Source: Schaalia meyeri
Lineage (GTDB): Bacteria; Actinomycetota; Actinomycetes; Actinomycetales; Actinomycetaceae
Assembly: GCF_900105015.1 (NCBI RefSeq)
Contig: NZ_FNLK01000015.1
Coordinates: 90,001 to 122,000, forward strand
DNA: 32,000 nt
Direction of reading: 5' to 3'
Made by a program: the position numbers and the translations under genes. Below the pieces are notes generated by a model. That model was not told the origin of the DNA and made no database searches. It was given only the letters and a program-made list of their open reading frames with translations. Numbering within the stretch: the first letter of the stretch is position 1; each line of letters begins with the position of its first letter. Shown piece by piece: positions 10,726 to 24,871 of this stretch.

Positions 10726-10944
10726 ATGGACCACATCGTCAAGGCTGAGACCGCGCCCACCATCAGCCAGGCCACCGCCTCGGCTTCCGTTTTCGTCGCC
10801 CTCATCGTCGTCCTGGCCGGACTCGGCATGGCCGCCGCCCTGCAGGTCGCCTCCGTGTCATCGATGGTCCTGGCGGTCGTCATCGCCCTGACCGCCCTGA
10901 TCGTCTCCCCCGCGATCATCTCGATCGCTCGCACGCGCGCCTGA
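10726..10944 (+). CDS. Small hydrophobic protein (72 aa, two predicted TM helices), unknown function
   Basis: AAGGAG (10716-10721) lies 4 nt before ATG 10726. The sequence MDHIVKAETAPTISQATASASVFVALIVVLAGLGMAAALQVASVSSMVLAVVIALTALIVSPAIISIARTRA has two hydrophobic spans. Its own terminator follows. Confidence 0.55.
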   Translation: MDHIVKAETAPTISQATASASVFVALIVVLAGLGMAAALQVASVSSMVLAVVIALTALIVSPAIISIARTRA

Positions 10945-10982: not shown

Positions 10983-11017
10983 AGCGTGACACCGCCGAGG
11001 TGTCGCGCTTTTTCTTT
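10983..11017 (+). terminator. Rho-independent terminator after the 72-aa ORF
   Basis: 11-bp stem, AGCGTGACACC (10983-10993) with GGTGTCGCGCT (10999-11009), containing one G-U pair. The loop is GCCGA. It is followed by TTTTTCTTTG. Confidence 0.6.
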
Positions 11018-11111: not shown

Positions 11112-11144
11112 CTATTTGTCAACCACTGCATCGAGGAGGATGTG

Positions 11145-11441
11145 ATGAACGGTTTTCGCATGGACACAGACAGGTTGGAAGAGGCCTCGGGGGAAATGGG
11201 TCGGCTATCCGACGGGATGAGCGAACTGGGGCTGGACAAGTGTGAAGAGTCCTTCGACTGTGGAGATAGCGCCGTGAGAGACGCGCTGATGTATTTTGTC
11301 TCCATGTACAACAGGCGCGGTCAGGCCACACGGGAGTGGCTCAACAAGACCGCCAGCGGGCTGCACGCTACCGCGTATGCGACGCAGGAAACCGACGACG
11401 AAGTGGCGGCGGTCTTCGAGGCGATTCGAGCGAAGCTGTAG
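11145..11441 (+). CDS. Small helical ESX/T7SS-associated helper (EspC/DUF2580-like, WXG100 superfamily) carrying a YxxxE motif
   Basis: AGGAGG (11134-11139) lies 5 nt before ATG 11145. The product is 98 aa and reads as all-helical. The C-terminal LHATAYATQETDDEVAAVFEAI contains Y78-A-T-Q-E82 (TAT at 11376-11378). The gene ends 13 nt before the WXG-protease gene. Confidence 0.6.
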   Translation: MNGFRMDTDRLEEASGEMGRLSDGMSELGLDKCEESFDCGDSAVRDALMYFVSMYNRRGQATREWLNKTASGLHATAYATQETDDEVAAVFEAIRAKL

Positions 11442-11454
11442 AAACGAGGGAATC

Positions 11455-12753
11455 ATGGAAGCGAGATTTTCGCAGCGCTTTCCGGCTGTGACGGGGGATC
11501 TGGGCTCGATCTGGTCGTGTCAGAACGAAATCAGGAATCGCTCGCGCCAGATCGGGGAGCTGTACACCGGCGTCAACGCTGTCATCAGCCGGTGCATCGA
11601 CTGGGAGGGACAGGCGAAAGACGCCTTCATCAACAGCGCGAGCGTCGAGAAACGCGAGATTGGCATCTGGGAGGACGGCACCCTCCAGGCGGCGAACGCG
11701 CTGAAGAGCTACTACTTCACTCTGGAGTGGGTCATTGGCTCGGTCAACGGGATCCGTGCCCGGGCGGACGAGCTGTGGGAGCAATACCAGGCGATGACCC
11801 CCGCCGACAGGGCGATGCAGGAGGCTTCCATTAAGGAGGAACTTTCCTACCTGCAAAAGAGCTACGACGACGCGAAGAACGAGCTGTCGAACCAGGCGCT
11901 GAACACCGCGGCCTCCCTCAGGGAGGCCCTGTATTTCACGCCGGAGGATATCCACACGGTCGAAGACGAGCACATCGACATTGGGGACACACGTTCCCTA
12001 ACAGACACAGAGATCAACAGCATCCTCGCCCACCTCAGCAATCCTTCATCCACCCTGTTCAGTATCAAGCAAGGGCAAATTGGAGACTGCCACCTGCTCG
12101 CCTCGCTCAACGCTTATAACCAGACCGAGGCGGGACGCAGGTATCTGGCGAGCCTCATTACCCCGCACTACGGCGCCGACGGCAAGGTGGACGGGTTCTA
12201 CGTGAACTTCCCCGGGTTCGGCAGGAACCGCAGGCGCGTTTTTGTCCAGGACGTACTGGAGCATGGGGATACCGCCGGGAGGAGCCGCAACGCTGACCTC
12301 GGCTCCATCTTCGAGAAGGCATTCGTCCAATCGCACATGGGCGGGACACGGGGGAAGTTCCCCACGTGGGGAGCCTCCGGGAGCCTGTCGGCCTTGACCA
12401 TGACGGACATCTCCGGCAAGCTCACCGCACCGATTCCACTCACGAACTCCACCAACGCGGCCGCCATGTTTGCCGCAATAGCCGCGGTCAACACGGGCAA
12501 GCCGGTCGTCGCCGAGTCCGGCCTCGTTACCGGGCCCGCAGACGTCATCGTCGGCGGGGAGCCGACGAGGATCCAGGTCTCCTCCAGCCACGTCTACACC
12601 GTCGTCGGAGCGGACGGCAACGGCGTGACCCTCACGAACCCGTGGGGGCACAACGATGCCCCCAACGGTAGTCGAACGGAGGCAACCTTCACGATGAGCT
12701 GGAGGGACTTCTTCGCCAACTTCGGCGACGTCACCGTGGGGCGGGTCCCGTGA
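11455..12753 (+). CDS. Putative T7SS-secreted polymorphic toxin: WXG100-like N-terminal domain fused to a calpain-like (peptidase C2-type) cysteine protease domain
   Basis: GAGGGA RBS before ATG 11455; the product is 432 aa. N-terminal helical region of about 190 aa with IDW50EG52QAKDAF (TGG at 11602-11604). C-terminal domain motifs: KQGQIGDC212HLLASL (TGC at 12088-12090), IFEKAFVQSH, SSH379VYTVVG (CAC at 12589-12591) and LTN395PWG (AAC at 12637-12639). These match calpain QGxLGDCWLLAA, EKAYAK, GHAYS and RNPWG. The upstream part of the track ORF (11296-11454) overlaps the helper gene out of frame and is not used. Confidence 0.8.
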   Translation: MEARFSQRFPAVTGDLGSIWSCQNEIRNRSRQIGELYTGVNAVISRCIDWEGQAKDAFINSASVEKREIGIWEDGTLQAANALKSYYFTLEWVIGSVNGIRARADELWEQYQAMTPADRAMQEASIKEELSYLQKSYDDAKNELSNQALNTAASLREALYFTPEDIHTVEDEHIDIGDTRSLTDTEINSILAHLSNPSSTLFSIKQGQIGDCHLLASLNAYNQTEAGRRYLASLITPHYGADGKVDGFYVNFPGFGRNRRRVFVQDVLEHGDTAGRSRNADLGSIFEKAFVQSHMGGTRGKFPTWGASGSLSALTMTDISGKLTAPIPLTNSTNAAAMFAAIAAVNTGKPVVAESGLVTGPADVIVGGEPTRIQVSSSHVYTVVGADGNGVTLTNPWGHNDAPNGSRTEATFTMSWRDFFANFGDVTVGRVP

Positions 12754-13232
12754 GCGTTAAGCCCCCGCGCAAGCGCACCGTGTTCACCATCCTCGCCCTG
12801 GTCTTCGTCATCGCCTGGACCTACGCCCACATCGCCTACGCCTGGCCCTGGAAACGATTCCAAACAGGCACCCGCATCACCTGCCAAGGCCAATACAGCG
12901 TCGGCTCTATACCAAACACTCCGGCTCCCCTACTGGGATTTCTTTCCGGCGGCTCCCCCGTACTCTTCGGCGCCAGGGGCAGGATCAACATGGGGGTCGA
13001 GACAGCCAGCATCGGCCTATCCGCAGAGATTGACGGCAAGATAGACACCCTCGCCTACGTGCCGGAAGTGAGCCTGGGGGAGTCCGCCACCGTCGATGGG
13101 GTGGGCACCTTCACCCTCAAACGGGCCTACTCGGGCACTGTGTGGTTCACCCCCAACCCCGGGGGAGCAACCTTCTGCTTCGAACCCGACCCCACCTTCA
13201 CCATACGAGAAGGAAAACAACGAGTGAAATGA
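12750..13232 (+). CDS. Membrane-anchored small protein, candidate immunity/inhibitor protein, copy 1
   Basis: GTG 12750 overlaps the toxin stop (GTGA). The product is 160 aa. It has a KPPRKR positive patch, then the TM helix TVFTILALVFVIAWTYAHIAYAW, then a roughly 120-aa beta-looking domain with two Cys residues. It is a paralogue of the next gene. Confidence 0.7.
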   Translation: MSVKPPRKRTVFTILALVFVIAWTYAHIAYAWPWKRFQTGTRITCQGQYSVGSIPNTPAPLLGFLSGGSPVLFGARGRINMGVETASIGLSAEIDGKIDTLAYVPEVSLGESATVDGVGTFTLKRAYSGTVWFTPNPGGATFCFEPDPTFTIREGKQRVK

Positions 13233-13276
13233 GGACAAGCACTCTCACCACCCTCACCGCAGGGCGGGTCCCGTGA
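13229..13276 (+). other. 15-codon relic ORF (MRTSTLTTLTAGRVP) retaining the toxin 3' end, bridging the two paralogues
   Basis: ATG 13229 overlaps the stop of copy 1 (ATGA). Its stop at 13274-13276 overlaps the GTG start of copy 2 (GTGA). Its last residues, GRVP plus stop, and about 15 nt of DNA are identical to the toxin gene end (..VTVGRVP stop). Confidence 0.35.
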
Positions 13277-13746
13277 GCGTTAAGCCCCCGCGCAAGCGCA
13301 CCGTGTTCACCATCCTCGCCCTGGTCTTCGTCATCGCCTGGACCTACGCCCACATCGCCTACGCCTGGCCCTGGAAACGATTCCAAACAGGCACCCGCAT
13401 CACCTGCCAAGGCCAATACCAGGTAGGAGCGGAACCTCACCAGAACGCGACGTACCTAGGAACACTGACTGACGACTCATTGGTGAGGTTCGACGCCTGG
13501 GGAGAAATCAACATGGGGGTCGAGACCGCAGGATTTTCCCTATTCACGATTGAAGGCAATCACGTGAACGACATCGCCTACGTGCCGGAAGTGAGCCTGG
13601 GGGAGTCCGCCACCGTCGAGGGAGTGGGCACCTTCACCCTCAAACGGGCCTACTCGGGCACTGTGTGGTTCACCCCCAACCCCGGGGGAGCAACCTTCTG
13701 CTTCGAACCCGACCCCACCTTCACCATGTTCGAAGAAGCCAAATGA
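13273..13746 (+). CDS. Membrane-anchored small protein, candidate immunity/inhibitor protein, copy 2 (variant central region)
   Basis: 157 aa. The first 49 aa are identical to copy 1. The central 52 aa are 21/52 identical. The next 50 aa are identical except for one D/E change. It has the same TM anchor and the same two Cys residues. Confidence 0.7.
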   Translation: MSVKPPRKRTVFTILALVFVIAWTYAHIAYAWPWKRFQTGTRITCQGQYQVGAEPHQNATYLGTLTDDSLVRFDAWGEINMGVETAGFSLFTIEGNHVNDIAYVPEVSLGESATVEGVGTFTLKRAYSGTVWFTPNPGGATFCFEPDPTFTMFEEAK

Positions 13747-13793: not shown

Positions 13794-15188
13794 TCAGGGC
13801 AGCCGCGGAGGCCGCGCCTGGGCGGCGGCCCGCGCGGCCGCCGGGGCGGCCGCAGCAATCGCCTCGATCTCGGCGTCACCGTGCGCCGCGGAGGTGAACC
13901 AAACCTCGAACACTGAGGGCGGCAGTGCTATGCCCGAGGACAGGAAGGAATGGAAGAACGGACCGTAACGCCACGCCTCCTGGGCACGCGCCTGCTCGTA
14001 GTCGTACACGCCAAAGGCGGCAGCGACCTCGCCGAACATGAACGAAAACAGAGAGCCCGTGCGCTGGACGCGGTGAGCGACTCCGCAGGCGCTGAGGGCA
14101 TCGGAAACAATGGTACTGATCGCCTGAGCCGAGGCATTCACACGGTCGTACACGCCCCGGTCGGCCAGCTCAAGGGTGCGCAGGCCCGCGGCGGTGGCCA
14201 GCGGATTGCCCGACAGCGTACCCGCCTGGTAGACGGGTCCCACAGGCGCCAAAAGATCCATGACGTCCGCGCGGCCACCCACGGCGGCCAGCGGCATGCC
14301 GCCCCCCACGACCTTGCCGAAGGTCACCAGGTCAGGCACCCAATCCGCGCCACCCACCGCCGAGTCATCGACGAACCCGGCGCTGAACTCGCCCGCTGGG
14401 GCGCCATCCACCCAGGAGGCCACGGCCTCCAGTCCCCACCAGCCGGCGGGGTCAACGCGGAAGCCCGTCAGGACCTCATCGAGAATCATGAGGGCGCCGT
14501 GAGCGGTACACAGGCGACGGATTTCGCGGTTCCATCCCGGGCGCGGGGGCACGGCACCCATGTTGGCGGGCGCGCCCTCGAAAATGACGGCAGCGATGCG
14601 GCCACCCGCCTCGTCGAAGCAACCGCGAAGCGCATCAACATCGTTATAGGGCAGCACGACCGTCTGCGCGGCAATCGCCTCGGGAACACCCGCGGATCCG
14701 GGCAGTCCGCCGGTGGCCACGCCGGAGCCGGCGGCCGCCAGCAGCCCGTCTGAGTGCCCGTGGTAATTCCCCGCAAACTTGACGATCAGATCGCGTCCGG
14801 TGGCGCCGCGCGCCAGGCGAATCGCTGTCATGGTCGCCTCGGTCCCGGTGGAAACGAAACGGACGCGCTGGGCAAAGGGAACGCGCTCCCGCACGGCGCG
14901 GGCGAGGAACGTCTCGGTTTCCGTGGGCGCCCCGAAGGACAGCCCGCGCGAGGCTGCTTCCTGGACGGCGGCGACGACCTGGGGATGGGAGTGACCCAGG
15001 AGCGCCGGCCCCCACGAGCCGACCAGATCCACGTAGGTGCGCCCCTCGATATCGGTGACGGTCGCGCCGCTGGCGCTCGCGATAAAACGCGGGGTGCCGC
15101 CGACGCCCCCGAAGGCGCGCACGGGCGAGTCAACGCCGCCGGGTATCACGGATTTCGCTTGAAAAAACGCTGTTTCGTTACTGGTCAC
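13794..15188 (-). CDS. hemL: Glutamate-1-semialdehyde 2,1-aminomutase
   Basis: [12 protein letters not shown], the class III aminotransferase core and a PLP-lysine context ([11 protein letters not shown]). I prefer GTG 15188 ([25 protein letters not shown]-like element 6 nt upstream, same N-terminal spacing as E. coli HemL). The track start is at 15200. Confidence 0.9.
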
Positions 15189-15242
15189 GGCTACCTTCAC
15201 GGGACGAGGCCTGGGTTTGTTTCGCTTCCATCCTACCCGCGC

Positions 15243-16274
15243 TCAGCGCCAGCGGCGGGCAGCTTCGGGCGCCCAGTAGGTCAGCACCGAGTCGGCACCC
15301 GCTCGAAAGATGCCGGTGAGGGATTCGTCGATGACGCGTTCCCGGTCGATCCAGCCGTTGGCGGCGGCGGCCTCGACCATCGAGTACTCGCCGGAGACCT
15401 GGTAGGCGGCGACGGGAATGTCGGATGCGGCAGCCACGTCGGCCAGGACGTCCAGGTAGGGGCCCGCCGGTTTCACCATGAGCATGTCGGCCCCCTCCGC
15501 GGCGTCCAGGAGCGCTTCGAAGACCCCTTCGCGGCGGTTGGCGGGATCCTGCTGGTAGGTGCGGCGGTCACCTGTGAGGGTGGATCCAACAGCCTCGCGG
15601 AAGGGCCCGAAGTAGGCGGACGCATACTTCGCGGAATAGGCCAGGATCGCGACGTCTGCGTGCCCCGCCCGATCAAGGGCCGCCCGTATCGCGGCCACCT
15701 GCCCGTCCATCATGCCCGAGGGGGACACCATGTGCGCCCCGGCGCGCGCCTGGGAAATGGCCATGGCCTGGTAGAGGGGCAACGTGGCGTCGTTATCGAC
15801 GCCACCCGATCCGTCAAGAAGACCGCAGTGCCCGTGATCGGTGAACTCGTCCAGGCACGTGTCGGCGCACACGACCAGGGCGTCGCCGACCTCGGCGCGT
15901 ACGGCGGCCAGTCCGCGGTTGAGGATGCCGTCCGGGGCCCACGCCTGGGTGCCGGTCGAGTCCCGCATGGCTGGCACGCCGAACAGGTCAATCGCGCCGA
16001 CCCCAGCCTCGGCGGCCTGGGCGGCGGCCCTGCGCAGGGAATCAATCGTGTGCTGGTACTGGCCGGGCATGGCGGCGATCTCGCGGGCCTCGTCGATGTC
16101 GTCGCGGACGAACACCGGCCATATCAGCTTGGCGGGATCGACGTGAGTTTCGCGCACCAGGCCGCGCATCGCGGGCGTGGAGCGCAGTCGGCGCGGGCGA
16201 ACGGTCGGGGTGGGGGCACCCTCCACCCCGGCCTCGGCCAGGTAGGAGGTGACGGATGTGGGCACGGTGGTCAT
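15243..16274 (-). CDS. hemB: Porphobilinogen synthase (delta-aminolevulinate dehydratase)
   Basis: RPRRLR, the [15 protein letters not shown] metal-site region, [11 protein letters not shown] and [12 protein letters not shown] are characteristic ALAD motifs. The start overlaps the hemD stop (ATGA at 16271-16274). Confidence 0.95.
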
Positions 16275-17083
16275 TGCTGTCCTTGGGTCGGCGAGAGGAT
16301 GTCGGTCAATGCGCGGGCAACCGCGTCGGGTCCGGGGGAATCGGCGTGGGCGGCCACGCCGATTCCCTGGCGTCGCGCCGTGTCGGCGGTGGGCGCGCCG
16401 ATGGTGGCGACCGGGGTCGTGGGAGGCGGCGTGCCCAGGAGGGTGAGCAGGGCTGGCACCTGGGAGGAAGCGGTGAGCAGGAGCGCATCGAAGTGGCCGC
16501 TCCGGTAGGCATCGGCGAGGTCTGTCGGGATGTCCCCGGGGGTTGCGGGCCGCGTGGTGTAGGCGTCAACCGCGTCAACGCTCCAGCCGAGAGCGCTCAG
16601 CCCGTCGGGCAGGTTTGGGGGCGCGATGGCGGATCGGGGGATGAGGACGCGGCCTCTTTGGTTGCCCGTGACCGGTGGAAAGGCGCGCACCAGCGCGGCG
16701 GCAGAACCCTGTCCGATCAGGTCGGGCGCCACCTTCCCGCAGTCTTTGATCCACCGGGCGGTGGCGGCTCCGACGGTCGCGATGCGAGTGCCGCGCGCGT
16801 GCGCGTCGGCGAGGAGGGGCGCAACCGCGCGGGCGCCTCTCCACGAGGAGAGAACCACCCAGGCGTAGGCGCCGCCACCCAGGTCCGTGCGCGCTTGGTC
16901 GAGTCGTGGGGATTCAAGGGGTAAAGAGACGGTCAGGGCCAGCGCGTCAACGTGCGCGCCCGCTTCCGTCAGGGCCAGCGCGATGGCATCGGGCTCCTTG
17001 AGGCGGCCCAGGAGAATGCGCCTGCCGACCAGCGGGCCCTCGCCCTGCCCCCGGGACGCGTCCGTGCCCTCTGGCGCGCTCAC
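16271..17083 (-). CDS. hemD: Uroporphyrinogen-III synthase
   Basis: About 270 aa, Ala/Gly-rich two-lobe HemD-like protein sitting between hemC and hemB. The GTG start overlaps the hemC stop (GTGA). The family is weakly conserved, so position contributes to the call. Confidence 0.75.
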
Positions 17084-18114
17084 GAGGGTGACCTGAGCGG
17101 CTTGGATGCGCGCAGGTCGGCCACGTTTGCGCCGCCCGCCGCCAGCAGGTTCTGCGCACAGCGCCTGCCCGCCGTGGCGGCGTCGGCTTCGCAGGCGTTA
17201 TCCGTGAGCGCCAGCGTGTCACGGGCCTCGACCGACGCGGACCCGTCCACCGCCACAATCCGCGCGTCGATGACCAGGGCAGAGTCGTCCTGGTTGACGC
17301 GGGCCAGGGCGCCCACGGGTGCCGCGCACCCGGCACCGAGGGACGCCATGAGTGCACGCTCGGCACTCGCCGCGAGCGCGGTGCCCCGGTCGTTCAGCGC
17401 GGCGACGACGGAGCGCAGCTCGGCGTCGATGTCGTCGCGCGTCTCGATCGCCAAGGCCCCCTGGGCGGGTGCGGGCATCATGGCCTCGGGGGGCAGGACG
17501 TGCGTGGCGTGGCCGCCAAGGCCCAGGCGTTTCAGGCCGGCGAGGGCCAGAACGACGGCCTCGAGTGGCTCACCCGTCCCGAGGGCCGTGTGCGCGGTGC
17601 CGACGTCCGTGCCCAGATCGACACCGCGCACGCGGGACAGGCGGGTGGGGACGTTGCCGCGCAGGTCGCAGATGCGCAGGTCCGGGCGGGCGGCGAGCAG
17701 CTGGGCGGCGCGGCGCGGCGACCCGGTGCCGACGCGCGCACCCTCCGGCAGGTCCGCCAGGGTCTGCCCGTCGGCGGCACACAGGGCGTCGCGCGGGTCT
17801 TCTCGGCACGGGACGGCCGCGATACGCAGGCCAGGAACGGGTGCGGTGGGCAGGTCTTTGAAGGAGTGGACGGCCAGGTCACACTGGCCTTCCAGCAGGG
17901 CCAGGCGCAGCTGGGCGGCGAACACTCCGATCCCACCCAGGGACGCGAGAGGTGTCGCGGTCACGTCCCCGTGGGTGCGGACGACCTTCAGCTCGACCGT
18001 GATGTTGAGGCCCATCGCCGCTCCCGCGCGCGAGGCGGCGCGGGCGACCGCGGCGGATTGGGCCAGGGCCAGCCGAGATCCTCGTGTGCCCAGGATCAGC
18101 GTGCGAGCGGTCAT
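17080..18114 (-). CDS. hemC: Hydroxymethylbilane synthase (porphobilinogen deaminase)
   Basis: LILGTRGSRLALAQS, HSFKDLPT, VGTGSPRRAAQL, RGNVPTRL and the dipyrromethane Cys context GAGCAAPVGA. ATG 18114 overlaps the hemY stop (ATGA). The track ORF extends to 18180. Confidence 0.95.
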   Translation of the reverse strand: MTARTLILGTRGSRLALAQSAAVARAASRAGAAMGLNITVELKVVRTHGDVTATPLASLGGIGVFAAQLRLALLEGQCDLAVHSFKDLPTAPVPGLRIAAVPCREDPRDALCAADGQTLADLPEGARVGTGSPRRAAQLLAARPDLRICDLRGNVPTRLSRVRGVDLGTDVGTAHTALGTGEPLEAVVLALAGLKRLGLGGHATHVLPPEAMMPAPAQGALAIETRDDIDAELRSVVAALNDRGTALAASAERALMASLGAGCAAPVGALARVNQDDSALVIDARIVAVDGSASVEARDTLALTDNACEADAATAGRRCAQNLLAAGGANVADLRASKPLRSPS

Positions 18115-19583
18115 GACAGTCCTTTCGCGCTCGCGCGCGCGTGCGAGACGACGGACGCGACGCCGGTGCCCGCGACCCACGCGCCGGTCAGGGCCAGGCC
18201 CCCCAGCGAGGCGACAGCGGCCTGCAGGGAAGCGACCCGCTCACGGTAGTCCGGGGGCAGGGGTGGGAGCGTGCCGTTCCAGCGCACCAACAGGTGATCG
18301 ACAACAGCGTCGGGGTCGATGCGCACGCCCGTCATGGCTCGGACGTCGCCCAGGGCGCGCCTGAGGTCGACCTCGGGTTCGGGTTCCCCGTAGCGGCCGT
18401 AGGACAGGCGCAACAGGTGTGTGCCGGCCTCGAACCGGCGCGCAAGCCACGGCCACTTGACGGTCAGGTGGGACAGGGCCTTGGCCTCGACGGGGCGATC
18501 GCCCGCGGGCGCGGGGGCGACCAGCAGGCCCTGTGAGACGGGTGCGTCGTCCAGCTCGGGAGCGCGCACGGCCAGGGTGAGGCGCGCGATGGGCGCGCCC
18601 TTGGGAACGCTCACGTCCGGGCCAGCGGGGATCCCCGCGCCATCCAGGATCCGCAGGGCGGCCTGCGCGCTGCAGGCCAGGACCACGCGCGGCGCGCGGA
18701 TGGCCGTGCCCGGCCCGTCGGGGACCGGCTCGGCGCTGGGGGTGGGTCCCCGGCGGGTCGGCCCCACGTCGCACCTCCAGGCCGTGCCGTCACGCGACAG
18801 GGTGCGGGCCCCCATCCGGGTGCAGACGGTTCCCCCGGCGGCCTCGATCGCCTGGCGCAGGGCGTCCACCAGGACGAACATGCCGCCCTCAACGCAGGCC
18901 TCGGGGGCGCGGCGCGTCCCCGAGCGGGCCAGGAGCTCGCCGACCGCCGCAGCCAGGGAGCCGGTGCGCGCGGTCGCGGCGCGCAACCCGGGGGCCACGG
19001 CGTCGGTGGCCAGCATTGACGGATCGGAGGTATAGATGCCGCTCACGATGGGGCGCACCGATCGCTCAAGCACCTGGGTCCCCATGCGGGCGGCCACGAA
19101 ACCGGCCAGCGTATCCCCGGCCCGGTCCATCCCAACGGAGGGGCCCATGGACGCGTCGAGGAGGGCGCGCCGCACCCCGTCAGCCCCAAAGGCGTGGGCG
19201 CAGTCGGGGGCGTCCGGGCGAGCGGGGATCCCCAGGAAGGATTCTCGCAGGAAGGGACGCAGCTCCCAGCCGCCCTGGCGCGCGGGCGCGAAAAGACGCG
19301 CGCCGGACCCGGCGGGCAGGGCGGCGCGCAGTCCCAGGTCGGCGATCATGGAGCAGACGTCGGTACCGCGAATGACGAAGGTCTCCGCGCCCAGGTCCAC
19401 GTCTGTCCCTGCGATGCGGCCGCGCGCGATGAGGCCGCCCAGGTAGCCGCGGGCCTCGACCAGGAGGGGGCGTTGCCCAGCCCGTGCCAGCTCCCACGCC
19501 GCCGTAAGGCCCGCGATTCCCCCACCGACCACGACCGCCCCGGGGGCGGTTGGGATGCCTGGATGCGTCTCCACGCGGCTCAC
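18111..19583 (-). CDS. hemY: FAD-dependent protoporphyrinogen/coproporphyrinogen III oxidase (HemY/CgoX type)
   Basis: N-terminal dinucleotide fold VVVGGGIAGLTAAWELARAG. It is about 490 aa and lies between hemE and hemC. The GTG start overlaps the hemE stop (GTGA at 19580-19583). Confidence 0.8.
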   Translation of the reverse strand: MSRVETHPGIPTAPGAVVVGGGIAGLTAAWELARAGQRPLLVEARGYLGGLIARGRIAGTDVDLGAETFVIRGTDVCSMIADLGLRAALPAGSGARLFAPARQGGWELRPFLRESFLGIPARPDAPDCAHAFGADGVRRALLDASMGPSVGMDRAGDTLAGFVAARMGTQVLERSVRPIVSGIYTSDPSMLATDAVAPGLRAATARTGSLAAAVGELLARSGTRRAPEACVEGGMFVLVDALRQAIEAAGGTVCTRMGARTLSRDGTAWRCDVGPTRRGPTPSAEPVPDGPGTAIRAPRVVLACSAQAALRILDGAGIPAGPDVSVPKGAPIARLTLAVRAPELDDAPVSQGLLVAPAPAGDRPVEAKALSHLTVKWPWLARRFEAGTHLLRLSYGRYGEPEPEVDLRRALGDVRAMTGVRIDPDAVVDHLLVRWNGTLPPLPPDYRERVASLQAAVASLGGLALTGAWVAGTGVASVVSHARASAKGLS

Positions 19584-20671
19584 CTGCCCGCGTCGTGGAC
19601 CAGCTCCACGATGTGGGTGAGCACCGTCGGGTCCGTGGTCGGGGGGACGCCGTGCCCCAGGTTAAAAATGTGGCCGGGAGCGGCTCGACCGGTGGCGAGA
19701 ATATGACGAACGGCCTGTTCGATAACGTCCCACGGAGCCTGCAACAGTGCGGGGTCCAGATTCCCCTGGACCGCCTTGCCGGGAACCTGCTCGATCGCCC
19801 ACGCCAGGTCCGTCTTCCAGTCCACGCCCACGCAATCCGCCCCGACGGCAGCCATATCGGCCAGGATCGGTGCGCTGCCCGTCCCGAAGTGAATGAGCGG
19901 GGCGCGCCGACCGGTCACCGGGACGCGCGCCCGAGCAAGGCGGGAGGCGACGCGGCGCGAGTACGGCGCGACCGAGTCGCGATAGACCCGCGGGGACAGG
20001 GAGCCCACCCACGAGTCAAAGAGCTGGGCGGCGCTGGCGCCGGCCTCGACCTGGGAGGCGAGGAAGTCGCCGGTCACGCGCGCACACCAGCCCATGAGCT
20101 CGTCCCACGCGCCAGGATCCGAGGCGGCGAGCGCCCGGGCCGCCAGGTGGTCGCGGGAGGGGCGTCCCTCGACCATGTAGGCGGCCAGCGTGAAGGGGGC
20201 GCCCGCGAATCCGATGAGGGGGGTCTCGCCCAGTTCGCGCACGGCCAGGGCGACGGCCTGGCGCACCGCTCGGGCGCCCTCACCGCAATCGCGGGCGTTT
20301 CCAGCGGCGTCGGTCCACGAGCCGGACCCGTAGGAGTGACGGGTGAGCTCATCGATTGCCTGGCGCGTGCGGTACGGGTGGTCCAGGACGGGGCCCACGC
20401 CCGGCTCAATCTCGACCCCCACGCCCGCCAGGCGCAGGGGGATCATGATGTCGGAGAAGAGGACGGCGGCGTCCACGCCGTGGCGGCGCACAGGCTGAAC
20501 GGTCGCCTCGGCGGCGACCTCGGGGACCAGGCAGGCCTCGAGCATGGGCAGGCCCACGCGGGCGCGCAGCTGCCTGTACTCGGGCAGGGAGCGGCCGGCT
20601 TGGCGCATGAACCACACGGGGGCGGGTCCACGCCGCCCCGTCAAGGCAGCCAGCAGCGGGGGCATCGTCAT
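19580..20671 (-). CDS. hemE: Uroporphyrinogen decarboxylase
   Basis: PVWFMRQAGRSLPEYR, the signature N-terminal URO-D motif, is present, along with FDSWVG and NLGHGV motifs. AGGAAG RBS lies before ATG 20671. Confidence 0.95.
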   Translation of the reverse strand: MTMPPLLAALTGRRGPAPVWFMRQAGRSLPEYRQLRARVGLPMLEACLVPEVAAEATVQPVRRHGVDAAVLFSDIMIPLRLAGVGVEIEPGVGPVLDHPYRTRQAIDELTRHSYGSGSWTDAAGNARDCGEGARAVRQAVALAVRELGETPLIGFAGAPFTLAAYMVEGRPSRDHLAARALAASDPGAWDELMGWCARVTGDFLASQVEAGASAAQLFDSWVGSLSPRVYRDSVAPYSRRVASRLARARVPVTGRRAPLIHFGTGSAPILADMAAVGADCVGVDWKTDLAWAIEQVPGKAVQGNLDPALLQAPWDVIEQAVRHILATGRAAPGHIFNLGHGVPPTTDPTVLTHIVELVHDAGR

Positions 20672-20914
20672 GTCTCTTCCTTATTTTAGATAGGGGTCCG
20701 TGCGGTAATTCGTGCGCATCGGGCACCGTCCAGTTTAGTGGGTACCATTTTGTGCCACGGCCTCAGCTGTTGAAATAATGCTTTTTCCCATCCCCTTTGC
20801 CGCGGGAGAATGCCAAATATTCAACCATCGAAACATCGTGACACGGGCGTCACCAACCCTCGTTCGTCGGCCGTTGGGACACCGACGCCCCTCGTGCCCT
20901 TAAATGGGAACGTT

Positions 20915-22237
20915 GTGACTGTTCATATGCTTTCAGCGGACCACCGCCACGCCCCCCTCGACGACATCGCCCGGCTCTCCGGCGCGACCGACCTCGGCCC
21001 CACGCTGGCACGCGCGTGCCCTCAGGCGCGCGGCGTCATGGTCCTGCGCACCTGCAACCGCGTCACCGTCTACATCGACGCACCCGCCTCGGCCAACCCC
21101 CGCGCGCTCCGCGACACCGTCGAGCGCGAGCTGGCCCGGGCCTCGGCGATGGCGAGGAAGGACGTGAAGCTGCGCCACCTGTGGGGGCGCGACGCCCTCA
21201 CCGACCTGTTCGCGACGGCCGCGGGCCTGGAGTCCATGGTCGTCGGGGAACGCGAGATCGCGGGGCAGATGCGCCGCGCAGCGCACTGCGCATGGGAGGA
21301 CGGGACCCTCAGCTGCGACCTGGGTCGCGCCGTGGAGCGCGCGTCCGCGACCTCGCGGCGCATCGCCACCGAAACCAGTTTGGCGGGAGCGGGGCGCTCG
21401 GTCGTCGCCGTCGGACTGAACCTGGCGGCCGCCCACCTGCCCGCGTGGGAGGACACCAGGGTCCTCATCGTCGGGACGGGCGCGTACGCGGGCGCCTCTG
21501 TGAGCACGCTGGCCGCCCTGGGCGCCCTGGACGTGTGCGTCTACTCCACGTCCAGCCGCGCGGAAGAGTTCGCACGGGGACGAGGCATCGGCTGGGTCGA
21601 TGCGCACGCCCTCCCGGACGCCCTTCGCCGCGCGGACCTGGTGCTCACCTGCCGGGGACTGGGGTCCGCCGTCCTGACCCGTTCCCTCGCGCAGCGCGCC
21701 GGCCGCACGGTTGTTTTGGACCTGGCGCTCACCCGCGACGCGGACGCCTCCATCGCGGATCTGCCGGGGATCACCCTCATCGACCTGCCTACGATCCAGG
21801 GGTCGGTGCCCGACGCGCAGGTCGACGCGCTCGATCGCGCCCATGCGATCATCTCCGAGGAGGTGGACTCCTTCGAGCGCGGCCTCGGCGCCCGCTCAAT
21901 GGACCCCGTCGTGCGCCACCTGCGCGCCCGCGTCTTCGACATCGTCGACGCGGAGATCGCTCTTCTGGGCCAGGATCCCATCTCGCCCGAGAAAGCGGCG
22001 CGGGCCCTGCGCCACCTGGCCGCCCGACTCGTCCACAACCCCACCGTCATGGCCCGCAAGGCCGGCGAAGAGGGTCAACAGGAGCGCTACCTGGAGGCGC
22101 TGAGCGTGGTCCTCGGCATCGACGAGGCCGTGTCCGTGTGCCCCGCCCACGCCCGCAACCGGAGCGCTGTTCACGGCCAGCAGGCACCTCACCATTGCGA
22201 GGCGCGCACCAGGCCGCTTCGTACACTGGGGGCATGA
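20915..22237 (+). CDS. hemA: Glutamyl-tRNA reductase
   Basis: TCNRV active-site Cys motif, VVGEREIAGQM, and the NADPH-binding VLIVGTGAYAG. I chose GTG 20915 (GGGAA 5 nt upstream), which puts the conserved His at residue 10 as in other HemA proteins. The ATG 20810 extension is AT-rich and its SD abuts the ATG. Confidence 0.88.
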   Translation: MTVHMLSADHRHAPLDDIARLSGATDLGPTLARACPQARGVMVLRTCNRVTVYIDAPASANPRALRDTVERELARASAMARKDVKLRHLWGRDALTDLFATAAGLESMVVGEREIAGQMRRAAHCAWEDGTLSCDLGRAVERASATSRRIATETSLAGAGRSVVAVGLNLAAAHLPAWEDTRVLIVGTGAYAGASVSTLAALGALDVCVYSTSSRAEEFARGRGIGWVDAHALPDALRRADLVLTCRGLGSAVLTRSLAQRAGRTVVLDLALTRDADASIADLPGITLIDLPTIQGSVPDAQVDALDRAHAIISEEVDSFERGLGARSMDPVVRHLRARVFDIVDAEIALLGQDPISPEKAARALRHLAARLVHNPTVMARKAGEEGQQERYLEALSVVLGIDEAVSVCPAHARNRSAVHGQQAPHHCEARTRPLRTLGA

Positions 22238-23184
22238 GCACCCGGAAGAACGAACCACGCGCCCTCGCCCTGGGCGTCGCCGTCTACGTGATCTGGGGTT
22301 TCTTCCCCCTGTACTTTTTCCGGCTATCCCCCGCCGGGGCCGTCGAGGTGATCGTCCACCGGGCTGTGTGGGGCCTGGTTTTTTGCCTGGCGGCGCTCGC
22401 ACTCACGGGCTCCCTGGGGAAGATCCGCGCGCTCGTCGCGGACAGGGGGGCGCTGTGGCGGCTCACGGTCGCGGGGGCTCTGGTCGTCGTCAACTGGTCC
22501 GTGTACGTGTTCGCCATCCTCACGGGCCACACGACGGACGCTGCGATCGGGTACTTCGTTAACCCCCTCGTCACCGTGGCCCTGGGCCTCATCGTGCTGC
22601 GTGAGCGCGTCACCCCCGTCCACAAGCTCGCCCTTAGCCTGGGTTGCCTCGCCGTTGTCATCCTTATCGTCGGACAGCGCTCCATCCCGATCGTATCCCT
22701 GACGCTCGCCCTCACGTTCGGCCTGTATTCCCTGGTGAAAAAAGACGTGGCCGCTCGCGTTGACCCGTTGGCCGGCATGGCCATCGAAACAGCCGCGGTC
22801 TCGCCCATCCTGCTGGGCTACTACGCGTACCTGGTGGCCACTTCCTCCACGTCCTTCCACGCGCTGGCGTCCGGCCAGGGAACCCGTCCGTGGGGCGTGC
22901 ACCTGGCCCTGCTGGTGGGCGCGGGGGCGCTGACCATGGTTCCGCTGATCATGTTCGCCTCCGCCGCCAGGGGCCTCACCCTGGGCACCATGGGTTTCCT
23001 GCAGTACCTGGGCCCCACCCTGCAGCTCTTCGTCGCACTCTTCATCTTCGGGGAAAACGTTCCCACGATCCGGTGGGTCGCGATGGGGGTCGTGTGGCTG
23101 GCCCTGGGGTGCCTGAGCGGCGACTGGGCGCTCACCTCCCTTCGGGCAAGGCGCCTGGCGCGCTCGGCGGCGCCTGGCCGGTAG
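22234..23184 (+). CDS. rarD: EamA/RarD family transporter
   Basis: MSTRKNEPRALALGVAVYVIWGFFPLYFF (RarD-type WG..P.Y motif) with about 10 TM helices. ATG 22234 overlaps the hemA stop (ATGA). It forms the C-terminal 316 aa of the 722-aa track ORF. Confidence 0.85.
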   Translation: MSTRKNEPRALALGVAVYVIWGFFPLYFFRLSPAGAVEVIVHRAVWGLVFCLAALALTGSLGKIRALVADRGALWRLTVAGALVVVNWSVYVFAILTGHTTDAAIGYFVNPLVTVALGLIVLRERVTPVHKLALSLGCLAVVILIVGQRSIPIVSLTLALTFGLYSLVKKDVAARVDPLAGMAIETAAVSPILLGYYAYLVATSSTSFHALASGQGTRPWGVHLALLVGAGALTMVPLIMFASAARGLTLGTMGFLQYLGPTLQLFVALFIFGENVPTIRWVAMGVVWLALGCLSGDWALTSLRARRLARSAAPGR

Positions 23185-23202
23185 CGGGCCTGGGCCTCTC
23201 CC

Positions 23203-24552
23203 CTACCGGCCGCCCGGCTCCGGGCGGCCCGTGTAGTTGACGAAGCGCGCCATGTCACCCTGGAACAGGGCGGTCACGGTCGCGGTCGCGCCCGAGCGGT
23301 GCTTGGCGACGATGATGTCGGCCTCGCCGGGGCGGTCTTCCCTGTCGTAGTAGTCGGGCCGGTGCAGCAAAACGATGATGTCCGCATCCTGCTCCAGGGA
23401 GCCGGATTCGCGCAGGTCGCTCATCATGGGCTTCCGGTCGGTGCGCCCCTCGGAGTTACGGTTCAGCTGGGCGACGGCGATCACCGGAATATCCAGGTCC
23501 TTCGCCAACAGCTTGAGGTTTCGCGACATCGCGGAGACCTCCTGCTGGCGCGATTCCACCTGTCGACCGCTCGTCATGAGCTGCAGATAGTCAACGACGA
23601 CCAGGCCCAGGTTTTCCTGCTGCTTCAAACGCCTGCATTTCGAGCGGATCTCCGAGATCGTGATGTTCGCCGAGTCGTCCACGTACAGGGGTGCCTCGCT
23701 CATGCGGGACGTGGTTTCCGCGACCTTGCGCCAGTCCACGTCGCTCATCTGTCCGGCCTGCATCTTGGACAGGCGCACGCCGGACTCTGCGGAGAGCATG
23801 CGCATCGCGATCTCCTGCGCGCTCATTTCCAGGGAAAAGATCAGGGAGGTGATGCCGTGCTTCATGGAAGCGGAGCGGCAAAAGTCCAGGGCCAGCGTCG
23901 ACTTACCCATAGCGGGGCGCGCGGCGACGATGATCATCTGCCCGCCGTGCAGGCCCTGTGTGAGTTCGTCCAGGTCGGTGAATCCCGTGGGGACACCGTT
24001 GAGCTTGCCTCGGTTCTTTTCGATGTCCTCCAGTGCGTTGAGGATGTCCGAACTCATCTGCGTCATGGACACGTAATCGCTGGTTTCGCGGCCGTCCGAG
24101 ACCGCGTACACCTCGGCCTGTGCCTGGTCGACGATCTCGTCAACGTCGCCGCCGGCGTCCGCGTAACCGAGCTGGACGACGCGCGTGCCTGCAGTGACCA
24201 GGCGGCGCATAATGGCGCGCTCGCGCACGATCCGGGCGTAGTACGCGGCGTTCGCGGCCGTCGGAACCGACGCGATGAGACTGTGCAGGTAGGCGGCGCC
24301 ACCCACCTTGGAGAGCATTCCGGCGCGCTTGAGCTCGCCGGCGACGGTGATCGCGTCCGCGGGTTCGGCGCGTCCGTTCAGTTCGATGATCGTGTCAAAG
24401 ATCGTCTCGTGGCTGGGCTGGTAGAAGTCTTGCCCACGCAGCATCTCGGACACCACGTTGGCGGCCTCGGTCGTCAGCATCATCGATCCGAGGACGCTCA
24501 TCTCCGCGTCGATGTCCTGCGGGGGGACGCGGTCGAATTGGTCGTCGGACAT
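23203..24552 (-). CDS. dnaB: Replicative DNA helicase
   Basis: PPQDIDAEMSVLGSML N-terminal motif, Walker A ARPAMGKST, Walker B VVVDYLQLM, and SGSLEQDADI. ATG 24552 is preceded by GAGAGGA. The product is 449 aa with no intein insertion visible. Confidence 0.95.
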   Translation of the reverse strand: MSDDQFDRVPPQDIDAEMSVLGSMMLTTEAANVVSEMLRGQDFYQPSHETIFDTIIELNGRAEPADAITVAGELKRAGMLSKVGGAAYLHSLIASVPTAANAAYYARIVRERAIMRRLVTAGTRVVQLGYADAGGDVDEIVDQAQAEVYAVSDGRETSDYVSMTQMSSDILNALEDIEKNRGKLNGVPTGFTDLDELTQGLHGGQMIIVAARPAMGKSTLALDFCRSASMKHGITSLIFSLEMSAQEIAMRMLSAESGVRLSKMQAGQMSDVDWRKVAETTSRMSEAPLYVDDSANITISEIRSKCRRLKQQENLGLVVVDYLQLMTSGRQVESRQQEVSAMSRNLKLLAKDLDIPVIAVAQLNRNSEGRTDRKPMMSDLRESGSLEQDADIIVLLHRPDYYDREDRPGEADIIVAKHRSGATATVTALFQGDMARFVNYTGRPEPGGR

Positions 24553-24683
24553 GGTGATCCTCTCGGGTGAATCGGCGGCTATCGAGCGAGGCGTGGTCGC
24601 TGGGGCCGCGAGCGCGAGCGCGGCTGCGGATAGAGATCCTCCAGGGAAGACTAACGCGTCGGCGGCGGGTGCGCGAGCGCCGA

Positions 24684-24871
24684 TGTGCACCGGCATGTGC
24701 ATACATTGTGGATAGCCTGTGCACCACGCCGAAGGAGCCTGTGCACAGCACCAAATGACCGATCTGTCAGCGCAGATATGCTCATCACAGTCACATCGTT
24801 GTCATTCATTGAGCCGTCTACAATTTCCGAGTGCGCGGCTTTCCACAGGCCTGTGCACATATTGTGGAAAA
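24684..24871. promoter_or_regulatory. Cluster of TGTGCAC and DnaA-box-like (TGTGGAWA / TTTCCACA) motifs in the dnaB-MATE divergent region
   Basis: TGTGCA(C) at 24684, 24696, 24718, 24740 and 24852. TGTGGATAG at 24707-24715 and TGTGGAAAA at 24863-24871 (reverse complements CTATCCACA and TTTTCCACA). CTTTCCACA at 24839-24847. TTTCCACA (24840-24847) and TGTGGAAA (24863-24870) form an inverted repeat around the palindrome TGTGCACA. Confidence 0.3.

Follow-up and report, generated by a model that had tools for sequence, protein, structure and literature searches.

The immunity genes esaG and tipC combine conserved nucleotide blocks with a variable centre and recombine between tandem paralogues (Garrett et al. 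2022, PMC9484751), and the variable centre of TipC corresponds to the face that binds the toxin (PMC9484751). In oral bacteria, Actinomyces included, immunity genes outnumber toxins (Zhang et al. 2012, PMC3482391). Here, we describe two tandem genes of Schaalia meyeri, designated ImmA and ImmB, which follow the gene of a putative calpain-like protease toxin in a 32,000-nucleotide (nt) stretch of contig NZ_FNLK01000015.1 (positions 90,001 to 122,000 of the forward strand; this whole stretch is hereafter called the window and is numbered from its first letter). According to our analysis, ImmA and ImmB are probably recombining members of a paralogous immunity-gene array beside this toxin, with the conserved blocks as crossover sites. 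The evolutionary mechanism and pattern are already known from other bacteria; the novelty lies in the family, in the phylum of the host, and in the probable activity of the toxin.

The TipC arrays (PMC9484751; Klein et al. 2018, PMC6193138) likewise place a tandem series of paralogues that are not identical after the gene of a type VII toxin, export of the toxin being a prediction in our case. They share with the ImmA/ImmB locus a variable centre between 5′ and 3′ blocks whose nucleotide identity is high, recombination via the blocks, and a copy number that varies between strains; TipC is also membrane anchored and faces outward against a toxin acting outside the membrane, as predicted for ImmA and ImmB. 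However, TipC belongs to a firmicute host and ImmA/ImmB to an actinobacterium (Esx, or type VII secretion system T7SSa, type), the TipC toxin is a lipid II phosphatase instead of a predicted calpain-like protease, and TipC is anchored by a lipobox instead of a membrane helix. ImmA/ImmB also has an extra, internal 20-nt crossover island, and the locus is known from sequence alone. The EsaG arrays that follow the EsaD nuclease in Staphylococcus aureus (PMC9484751) are comparable as strings of non-identical immunity genes with conserved blocks (three in esaG), where recombination causes gain, loss, and chimeras; they differ in being cytoplasmic, unrelated in sequence, built on shorter blocks (~55 to 100 nt), and present in up to 12 copies in S. 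aureus. Polyimmunity loci (Zhang et al. 2012, PMC3482391) also hold tandem immunity genes and in some cases lack a toxin, but they usually mix immunity families, whereas the ImmA/ImmB array is made of one family throughout. Finally, Cpe1 (PMC12136450) is a secreted cysteine-protease toxin with an adjacent inhibitor gene, both of which are putative at our locus; it is delivered by Gram-negative systems, targets GyrB and ParE in the cytoplasm, and is countered by a cytoplasmic immunity protein, whereas at our locus the protease has a calpain-like fold and the putative inhibitor would lie outside the cytoplasm. The 2012 polymorphic-toxin catalogue (PMC3482391) lists neither "calpain" nor the ImmA/ImmB family, and our literature search returned no paper describing a calpain-like protein as a type VII toxin.

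ImmA and ImmB lie on the plus strand at an offset of exactly +523 (coordinates are collected in Table 1), and each can be divided into two flanking blocks and a core. In the 5′ block, all 158 nt between 12739 and 12896 are identical to those between 13262 and 13419; to the left, weak homology extends as far as 12731, with mismatches at 12737 and 12738, so that the repeat unit begins in the 3′ end of the toxin gene, 11 to 19 nt before the ImmA start codon. The 3′ block is identical at 150/152 nt, and both differences fall on third codon positions, namely, 13097 (GAT/GAG, Asp/Glu, codon 116) and 13100 (GGG/GGA, synonymous, codon 117). The core between the blocks aligns without gaps but is identical at only 81/156 nt and 21/52 amino acids (aa), and it encloses an island of which all 20 nt are shared by the two copies (INMGVET, codons 79 to 85). 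Homology ends at codon 151, beyond which the C-terminal tails are unrelated and the next 49 nt are identical at 14/49 positions. Every number given in a first-pass annotation of the sequence was reproduced here; its interval opens at 12731, with complete identity from 12739 onward and weak homology from 12731 to 12738. Its statement that the flanks are more alike than the core was upheld by Fisher's exact test, both for all sites (p = 1e-39) and for synonymous sites alone (p = 3e-13). We considered an assembly artefact in the window and rejected it, since the exact ImmA protein is recorded on a 2.03-Mb contig and the pattern is repeated in independent genomes.

Nei-Gojobori estimates of synonymous (dS) and nonsynonymous (dN) divergence between ImmA and ImmB differ sharply by segment: dS and dN are both 0 in the 5′ block and reach 0.026 and 0.009 in the 3′ block, against 1.31 (with the left half saturated) and 0.65 in the core. 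The 75 core differences are distributed 26/19/30 over the three codon positions and draw on all four bases, without a bias toward adenine. The two cores are therefore old alleles, not the outcome of a young duplication with drift. This agrees with the earlier view that duplication followed by drift does not produce such a pattern, core dS being saturated and flank dS close to 0; of the "523-bp tandem duplication" proposed at the same time, the register holds, and the recent event that the term implies does not, both cores being old alleles. We deem it very improbable that a recent 523-bp tandem duplication was followed by fast positive selection or by targeted hypermutation confined to the core, e.g., by a diversity-generating retroelement. 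Such a history would explain the perfect register, the lack of a net indel, and the near-identical flanks, but it is at odds with the saturation of the core synonymous sites, with substitutions that affect every codon position and all four bases, and with the occurrence of both core alleles at 97 to 100% identity in other strains and of related cores on diverged flanks elsewhere. The core was likewise rejected as a retroelement target given the spread of its 75 differences over bases and codon positions and given that no reverse-transcriptase match was found among the larger open reading frames (ORFs) of the window that were scanned.

The comparison with related genomes points to recombination. 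Four metagenomic contigs close to S. meyeri, L022 to L025, with 2-3x coverage, each present another arrangement. In L025, from a strain 98.5% identical to the window at the nucleotide level, the toxin gene is followed by the exact ImmB protein as the only copy; L022 has a single copy combining core A (97% nt identity) with the B tail; the core in L023 resembles A up to nt 110 and B from nt 70 on, the two parts being joined at the 20-nt island; and L024 carries core B first, then an A-type tail, a spacer, and another copy. Among the protein matches, P0005 has an A-type core (90% aa identity) on flanks that are 65 to 74% identical, B-like cores (77 to 85% aa identity) are found in P0011, P0016, and P0018 to P0021 on flanks that are 69 to 88% identical, and S. 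meyeri-type flanks carry one or more additional core types. Clustering at 70 to 80% identity yields 8 to 11 discrete core classes versus a single flank class.

Array content was compared over 21 loci from a genome collection. In genomes of Schaalia, Actinomyces, and Pauljensenia the array occupies one and the same chromosomal site, with several discrete core types and a copy number of 1 to 5 or more, a range also covered by L001 to L015; a single copy is present in L028, as it is in L022 and L025. The contrast between blocks and core recurs within these arrays, copies 2 and 3 of L005 having nucleotide identities of 96/46/96% (5′ block/core/3′ block) and copies 2 and 4 of L004 having 95/48/87%. 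Two further core types, C and D, are each 89 to 98% identical across genomes and <50% identical to each other (nt), and 3′-block similarity cuts across core type, the segment identity matrices being incongruent. A four-gamete homoplasy index with site permutation was significant in three sequence sets (p ≤ 0.0005). The shared core alleles on different flanks, the L023 chimera, and this test support what the first-pass annotation had put forward as cassette exchange or recombination, or gene conversion of the flanks.

Between lineages, synonymous differences per synonymous site (pS) amount to 0.53 in the 3′ block, 0.51 in hemL, and 0.43 in the ABC permease gene. Since the 3′ block diverges between lineages like hemL, its near-identity within the genome indicates recent homogenisation beyond protein constraint. 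For this reason, it appears to us improbable that the flanks owe their identity only to very strong purifying selection, without recombination, on the membrane helix and the conserved C-terminal fold, and for the 3′ block this account is contradicted: a 3′ block with a pS of 0.53 between lineages has a dS of 0.026 within one genome, chimeric and re-sorted alleles are present, the homoplasy test is significant, and the 11 to 19 nt of upstream non-coding and toxin-derived sequence are duplicated too. What speaks for such selection is that the N-terminal helix and residues 110 to 151 are near-invariant family-wide and that the synonymous sites of the 5′ block are conserved even between species.

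A separate observation concerns this 5′ block, whose pS between the S. meyeri lineage and others is 0.14. Codons 14 to 35 (12789-12854 and 13312-13377) are unusually conserved at synonymous sites, and many 5′-block codons do not vary at all among the 44 copies examined; codon bias, a constraint on mRNA or translation, or exchange between species could be responsible.

Table 1. Positions of the toxin module, the ImmA/ImmB repeat pair, and their segments in the window
Feature	Position	Strand	Basis
Small helical protein, 99 aa, candidate WXG100-like secretion partner of the toxin	11142..11441	+	Upstream synteny, 44-57% aa identity
Putative Esx/T7SS-exported toxin, 432 aa	11455..12753	+	Peptidase_C2 match and WxG motif
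5′ homology block, copy 1, spanning the final 19 nt of the toxin gene and ImmA codons 1-49 (membrane helix)	12731..12896	+	158/158 from 12739; dS 0
ImmA, 160 aa	12750..13232	+	ORF; GTG start overlaps toxin stop (GTGA)
Variable core, allele A, codons 50-101	12897..13052	+	52% nt, 40% aa identity to core B
Conserved 20-nt island in core	12984..13003	+	20/20; L023 chimera junction
3′ homology block, copy 1, codons 102-151 (GVGTFTL...VWFTPNPG.ATFCF.PDPTFT conserved family-wide)	13053..13204	+	150/152; dS 0.026
Spacer mini-ORF, 15 codons (MRTSTLTTLTAGRVP, then stop)	13229..13276	+	ATG overlaps ImmA stop, TGA overlaps ImmB start
5′ homology block, copy 2	13254..13419	+	Identity to copy 1
ImmB, 157 aa	13273..13746	+	ORF
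Variable core, allele B	13420..13575	+	98-100% nt identical in L024, L025
3′ homology block, copy 2	13576..13727	+	Identity to copy 1

ImmA is 100% identical to the S. meyeri protein P0001, which bears the source name "DNA-binding protein," a name for which we found no support; an exact look-up of this protein in the contig index gave no record. The family counts 236 matches among 5.8 billion proteins, those with a source name being from Schaalia, Actinomyces, and Pauljensenia, and an exhaustive search of 1.8 billion representatives with the family profile gave 38 matches, mostly fragments. The rest of the profile matches are giant repeat proteins that match over the GVGTFTL stretch only and a small number of distant proteins of actinobacterial appearance whose N-termini are of the signal or lipoprotein type, among them P0156 with a lipoprotein-type signal ending in LAGC. 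Members are about 155 to 166 aa long and start with a basic N-terminus and a hydrophobic helix at residues 11 to 29 (mean Kyte-Doolittle value, 2.1), which would be a membrane helix or a signal peptide and after which come a near-invariant WTYAHIAYAWPW and a beta-rich domain that closes with the motif given for the 3′ block in Table 1; Cys45 and Cys143 are invariant or nearly so. Because of the charge distribution and the signal-like N-termini of the distant homologues, this domain is predicted to lie outside the cell. A first structure model of ImmA, built from 48 sequences, was discarded as unusable (predicted local distance difference test [pLDDT], 50); a second, from 121 sequences including the distant homologues, reached a pLDDT of 79.8 and consists of a helix at residues 8 to 31 followed by eight strands forming an all-beta domain, where the island corresponds to the turn between strands 70-80 and 83-94. 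A Foldseek search of the PDB with this second model returned nothing significant (best E value, 0.29; template modeling [TM] score, ≤0.24), and the family profile found no match among PDB sequences at an E value of ≤1; TipC (e.g., PDB 6DHX) is also absent from the 50 Foldseek matches listed, so that no homology to TipC was found.

Pfam and NCBIfam searches with ImmA and ImmB gave only sub-threshold CshA-repeat matches of 15 to 18 bits. In the giant repeat proteins P0129 (5007 aa), P0151 (3349 aa), and P0152 (1238 aa), 10 to 35 stretches each match the family profile, in every case only over the GVGTFTL-type strand. Together with the weak CshA-repeat matches, this suggests that a C-terminal strand motif is common to the family and to adhesin-type beta repeats.

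We think that the function of ImmA and ImmB is most likely immunity, because of their position and coupling to the toxin gene, the linkage of the family to the toxin site, the variation in copy number, the toxin-less orphans, and the predicted outward topology, which resembles that of TipC and TelC. Orphans are seen in L001 (1400-2700) and L013 (2860-4505), which are without the helical gene and the toxin and have kept one or two downstream copies; the deletion in L001 leaves the beginning of the helical gene fused to that of a downstream copy with nothing in between, and in L019 (4660-5170) only a 108-nt 3′ remnant is left. The first-pass annotation had compared the locus to immunity-gene arrays of polymorphic toxins. 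The array pattern, the range of copy number, and the orphan copies bear out this comparison, immunity itself being a prediction, and what is missing is the swapping of toxin C-terminal domains.

Under the mechanism that we propose, the exposed domain would bind to the protease and block it at the cell surface, and recognition of a given protease allele would depend on the variable core (codons 50 to 101), the cores being old, discrete specificity alleles; the protease would thus act in the wall zone and be blocked there by a surface-anchored inhibitor. Purifying selection and recent gene conversion or crossover would keep the 5′ block (~160 nt) and the 3′ block (~150 nt) near-identical. These blocks, and to a lesser extent the 20-nt island, would be long enough to serve as substrates for homologous recombination, and the same process would shuffle cores, generate chimeras, and expand or contract the array.

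An alternative that we judge unlikely is that the two proteins are variable cell-surface proteins, such as receptors or decoys, whose diversification is driven by phages, Saccharibacteria epibionts, or antibodies of the host, and that their link to the protease is only genomic or regulatory; antigenic or receptor variation would then result from recombination among the copies. Against this, the toxin stop codon and the start of the first copy overlap in every case, the family always lies at the site of the toxin in the loci fetched, and both families were found only in Schaalia, Actinomyces, and close relatives; moreover, the proteins are small (~125 residues beyond the helix) and have no wall-anchoring motif. 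The predicted extracytoplasmic location and the variable core fit such surface proteins, as do the weak adhesin-like CshA-repeat matches, which are below cut-offs, and the fact that Schaalia, a host of Saccharibacteria, reshapes its surface when infected (PMC13622651). The persistence of copies in toxin-less loci can be read in the same way, but orphan copies are just as typical of immunity genes.

Several observations weigh against a recombining immunity array. The core dN/dS is ~0.5, i.e., below 1, with dS saturated, so that diversifying selection is not demonstrated; of the earlier suggestion that flank gene conversion is combined with diversifying selection on the core, the homogenisation of the flanks is retained and the selection is not. 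At the 2-3x coverage of the four S. meyeri-like contigs, some arrangements could be repeat collapses, which we consider unlikely, the chance of having missed a whole core at this coverage being estimated at a few per cent per contig. L025, if real, pairs an identical toxin 3′ half with ImmB alone and leaves it ambiguous which copy is cognate. The divergence of the toxin correlates with that of the first-copy core (Spearman rho, 0.48), a value which is confounded by phylogeny and on which we do not rely. Export by type VII secretion rests on sub-threshold Pfam matches, the WxG motif, and the adjacent small helical gene, and genes of a secretion apparatus were not found within the window. In favour of such an array, by contrast, two contigs stop 15 to 31 nt past the toxin stop codon, as expected where an assembler meets a repeated block, many contigs break within the blocks, and a contig from another lineage with 21x coverage shows a clean single copy.

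The 432-aa protein encoded upstream of ImmA is assigned by sequence to the calpain-like cysteine protease family, with an above-cut-off match to Peptidase_C2 (PF00648, MEROPS C2) over residues 198 to 400 (29.0 bits; Pfam cut-off, 23.8 bits) and a conserved triad; the orthologues in L004 and L023 score 37.7 and 29.6 bits. The Cys (IGDCHLL), His (SxHxYTV), and Asn (NPWG) motifs and the W.G motif are invariant in 13/13 orthologues, and protease activity can be predicted on this basis; a phmmer search with the toxin against PDB sequences gave no match. All 157 toxin homologues, with the source name "C2 family cysteine protease," are 409 to 475 aa long and share a single architecture, so that the toxin varies as divergent alleles of one fixed architecture, not through C-terminal domain swapping. 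The N-terminal domain of the toxin is helical and contains the WxG motif; the T7SS_signal profile matches residues 12 to 124 of the window toxin at 20.5 bits, below its Pfam cut-off of 27 bits. Its matches in three orthologues are at 19 to 20.5 bits, and a fourth, that of L003, has none. Esx (type VII) export of the 432-aa protein is therefore put forward as putative. In all toxin-bearing loci the small helical gene lies directly upstream of the toxin gene; its product in the window has no Pfam match, and its orthologues have weak, sub-threshold matches to DUF6317 and T7SS_ESX_EspC. According to a 2026 preprint (PMC13622651), S. odontolytica has an active Esx system, each candidate substrate encoded outside the Esx cluster adjoins a small WXG100-like hairpin gene, and no Esx effectors of Actinomycetaceae had been experimentally identified before that work.

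If the locus is such an immunity array, it is possible, and we propose it tentatively, that it represents the first toxin-immunity module of an Actinomycetaceae Esx (T7SSa) system, in which a calpain-like protease would act outside the membrane on surface proteins of a neighbour or epibiont, a membrane-anchored inhibitor of new fold would be swapped as a cassette via dedicated blocks, and mini-ORFs would keep the copies coupled. The locus is a testable candidate for a protease toxin together with natural inhibitor alleles (A, B, the A/B chimera, and C and D in relatives), a panel that could map specificity determinants directly. It would widen the homology-block model of immunity arrays from Firmicutes to Actinomycetota, in abundant oral bacteria, Schaalia and Actinomyces, that are hosts of Saccharibacteria.

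The coupling of the genes is visible at their junctions. Every array copy begins with NTGA, as in the GTGA where the toxin stop overlaps the ImmA start. The mini-ORF in the spacer between ImmA and ImmB overlaps the ImmA stop through ATGA and the ImmB start through GTGA, and its end copies the C-terminus of the toxin (GRVP, then stop). The same mini-ORF is present in L024, at about 1037-1084, and in other arrays roughly every second downstream copy comes after a related mini-ORF of 11 to 12 codons (MLATTITTEAHP and MTPTITTEAHP, each followed by a stop), spacers of this kind being found in L001, L003, L004, L005, L007, and L014. Such mini-ORFs may act as a relay for translational coupling along the array.

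With a guanine-plus-cytosine (GC) content of 0.54 to 0.66, the module lies below its surroundings (~0.69). The value is 0.54 in core B, 0.61 in core A, 0.63 to 0.66 in the flanks, and 0.70 in the neighbouring hemL; the lower GC content of core B hints at a different history or origin of allele B.

The order at the site is the same in all related genomes fetched, with an iron/B12-type ABC transporter, orf72, the helical gene, the toxin gene, and the array. orf72, a hydrophobic ORF of 72 aa (10726-10944, plus strand), is conserved at 80 to 84% aa identity in nearly all loci holding the region and was not detected in L009. Rfam, terminator, and promoter scans between 10 and 14.5 kb gave no RNA family and, as the sole notable site, a terminator-like hairpin with a T-run at 10983-11009, between orf72 and the module; because of this hairpin, the toxin module is probably transcribed on its own. 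Schaalia-type loci, with flanking genes at 85 to 93% aa identity to those of the window, also occur in records labelled "Sanguibacter keddieii 250_SKED" (L002 and L015, NZ_JVOJ01) and "Xylanimonas cellulosilytica 352_XCEL" (L007, NZ_JVKM01), the organism names of which are probably wrong. The array is usually followed by hemL; in L028 to L030 an EamA transporter gene takes its place, followed in L028 by DnaB. These two genes, which adjoin the array in L028 (6900-9200), are found ~7 to 10 kb further on in the window (13794-24702), where hemL, hemB, a porphobilinogen deaminase-like ORF, and the gene for uroporphyrinogen decarboxylase lie between them and the array. Since the array in L028 stands directly before EamA and DnaB, the heme cluster beside it is present or absent depending on the lineage.

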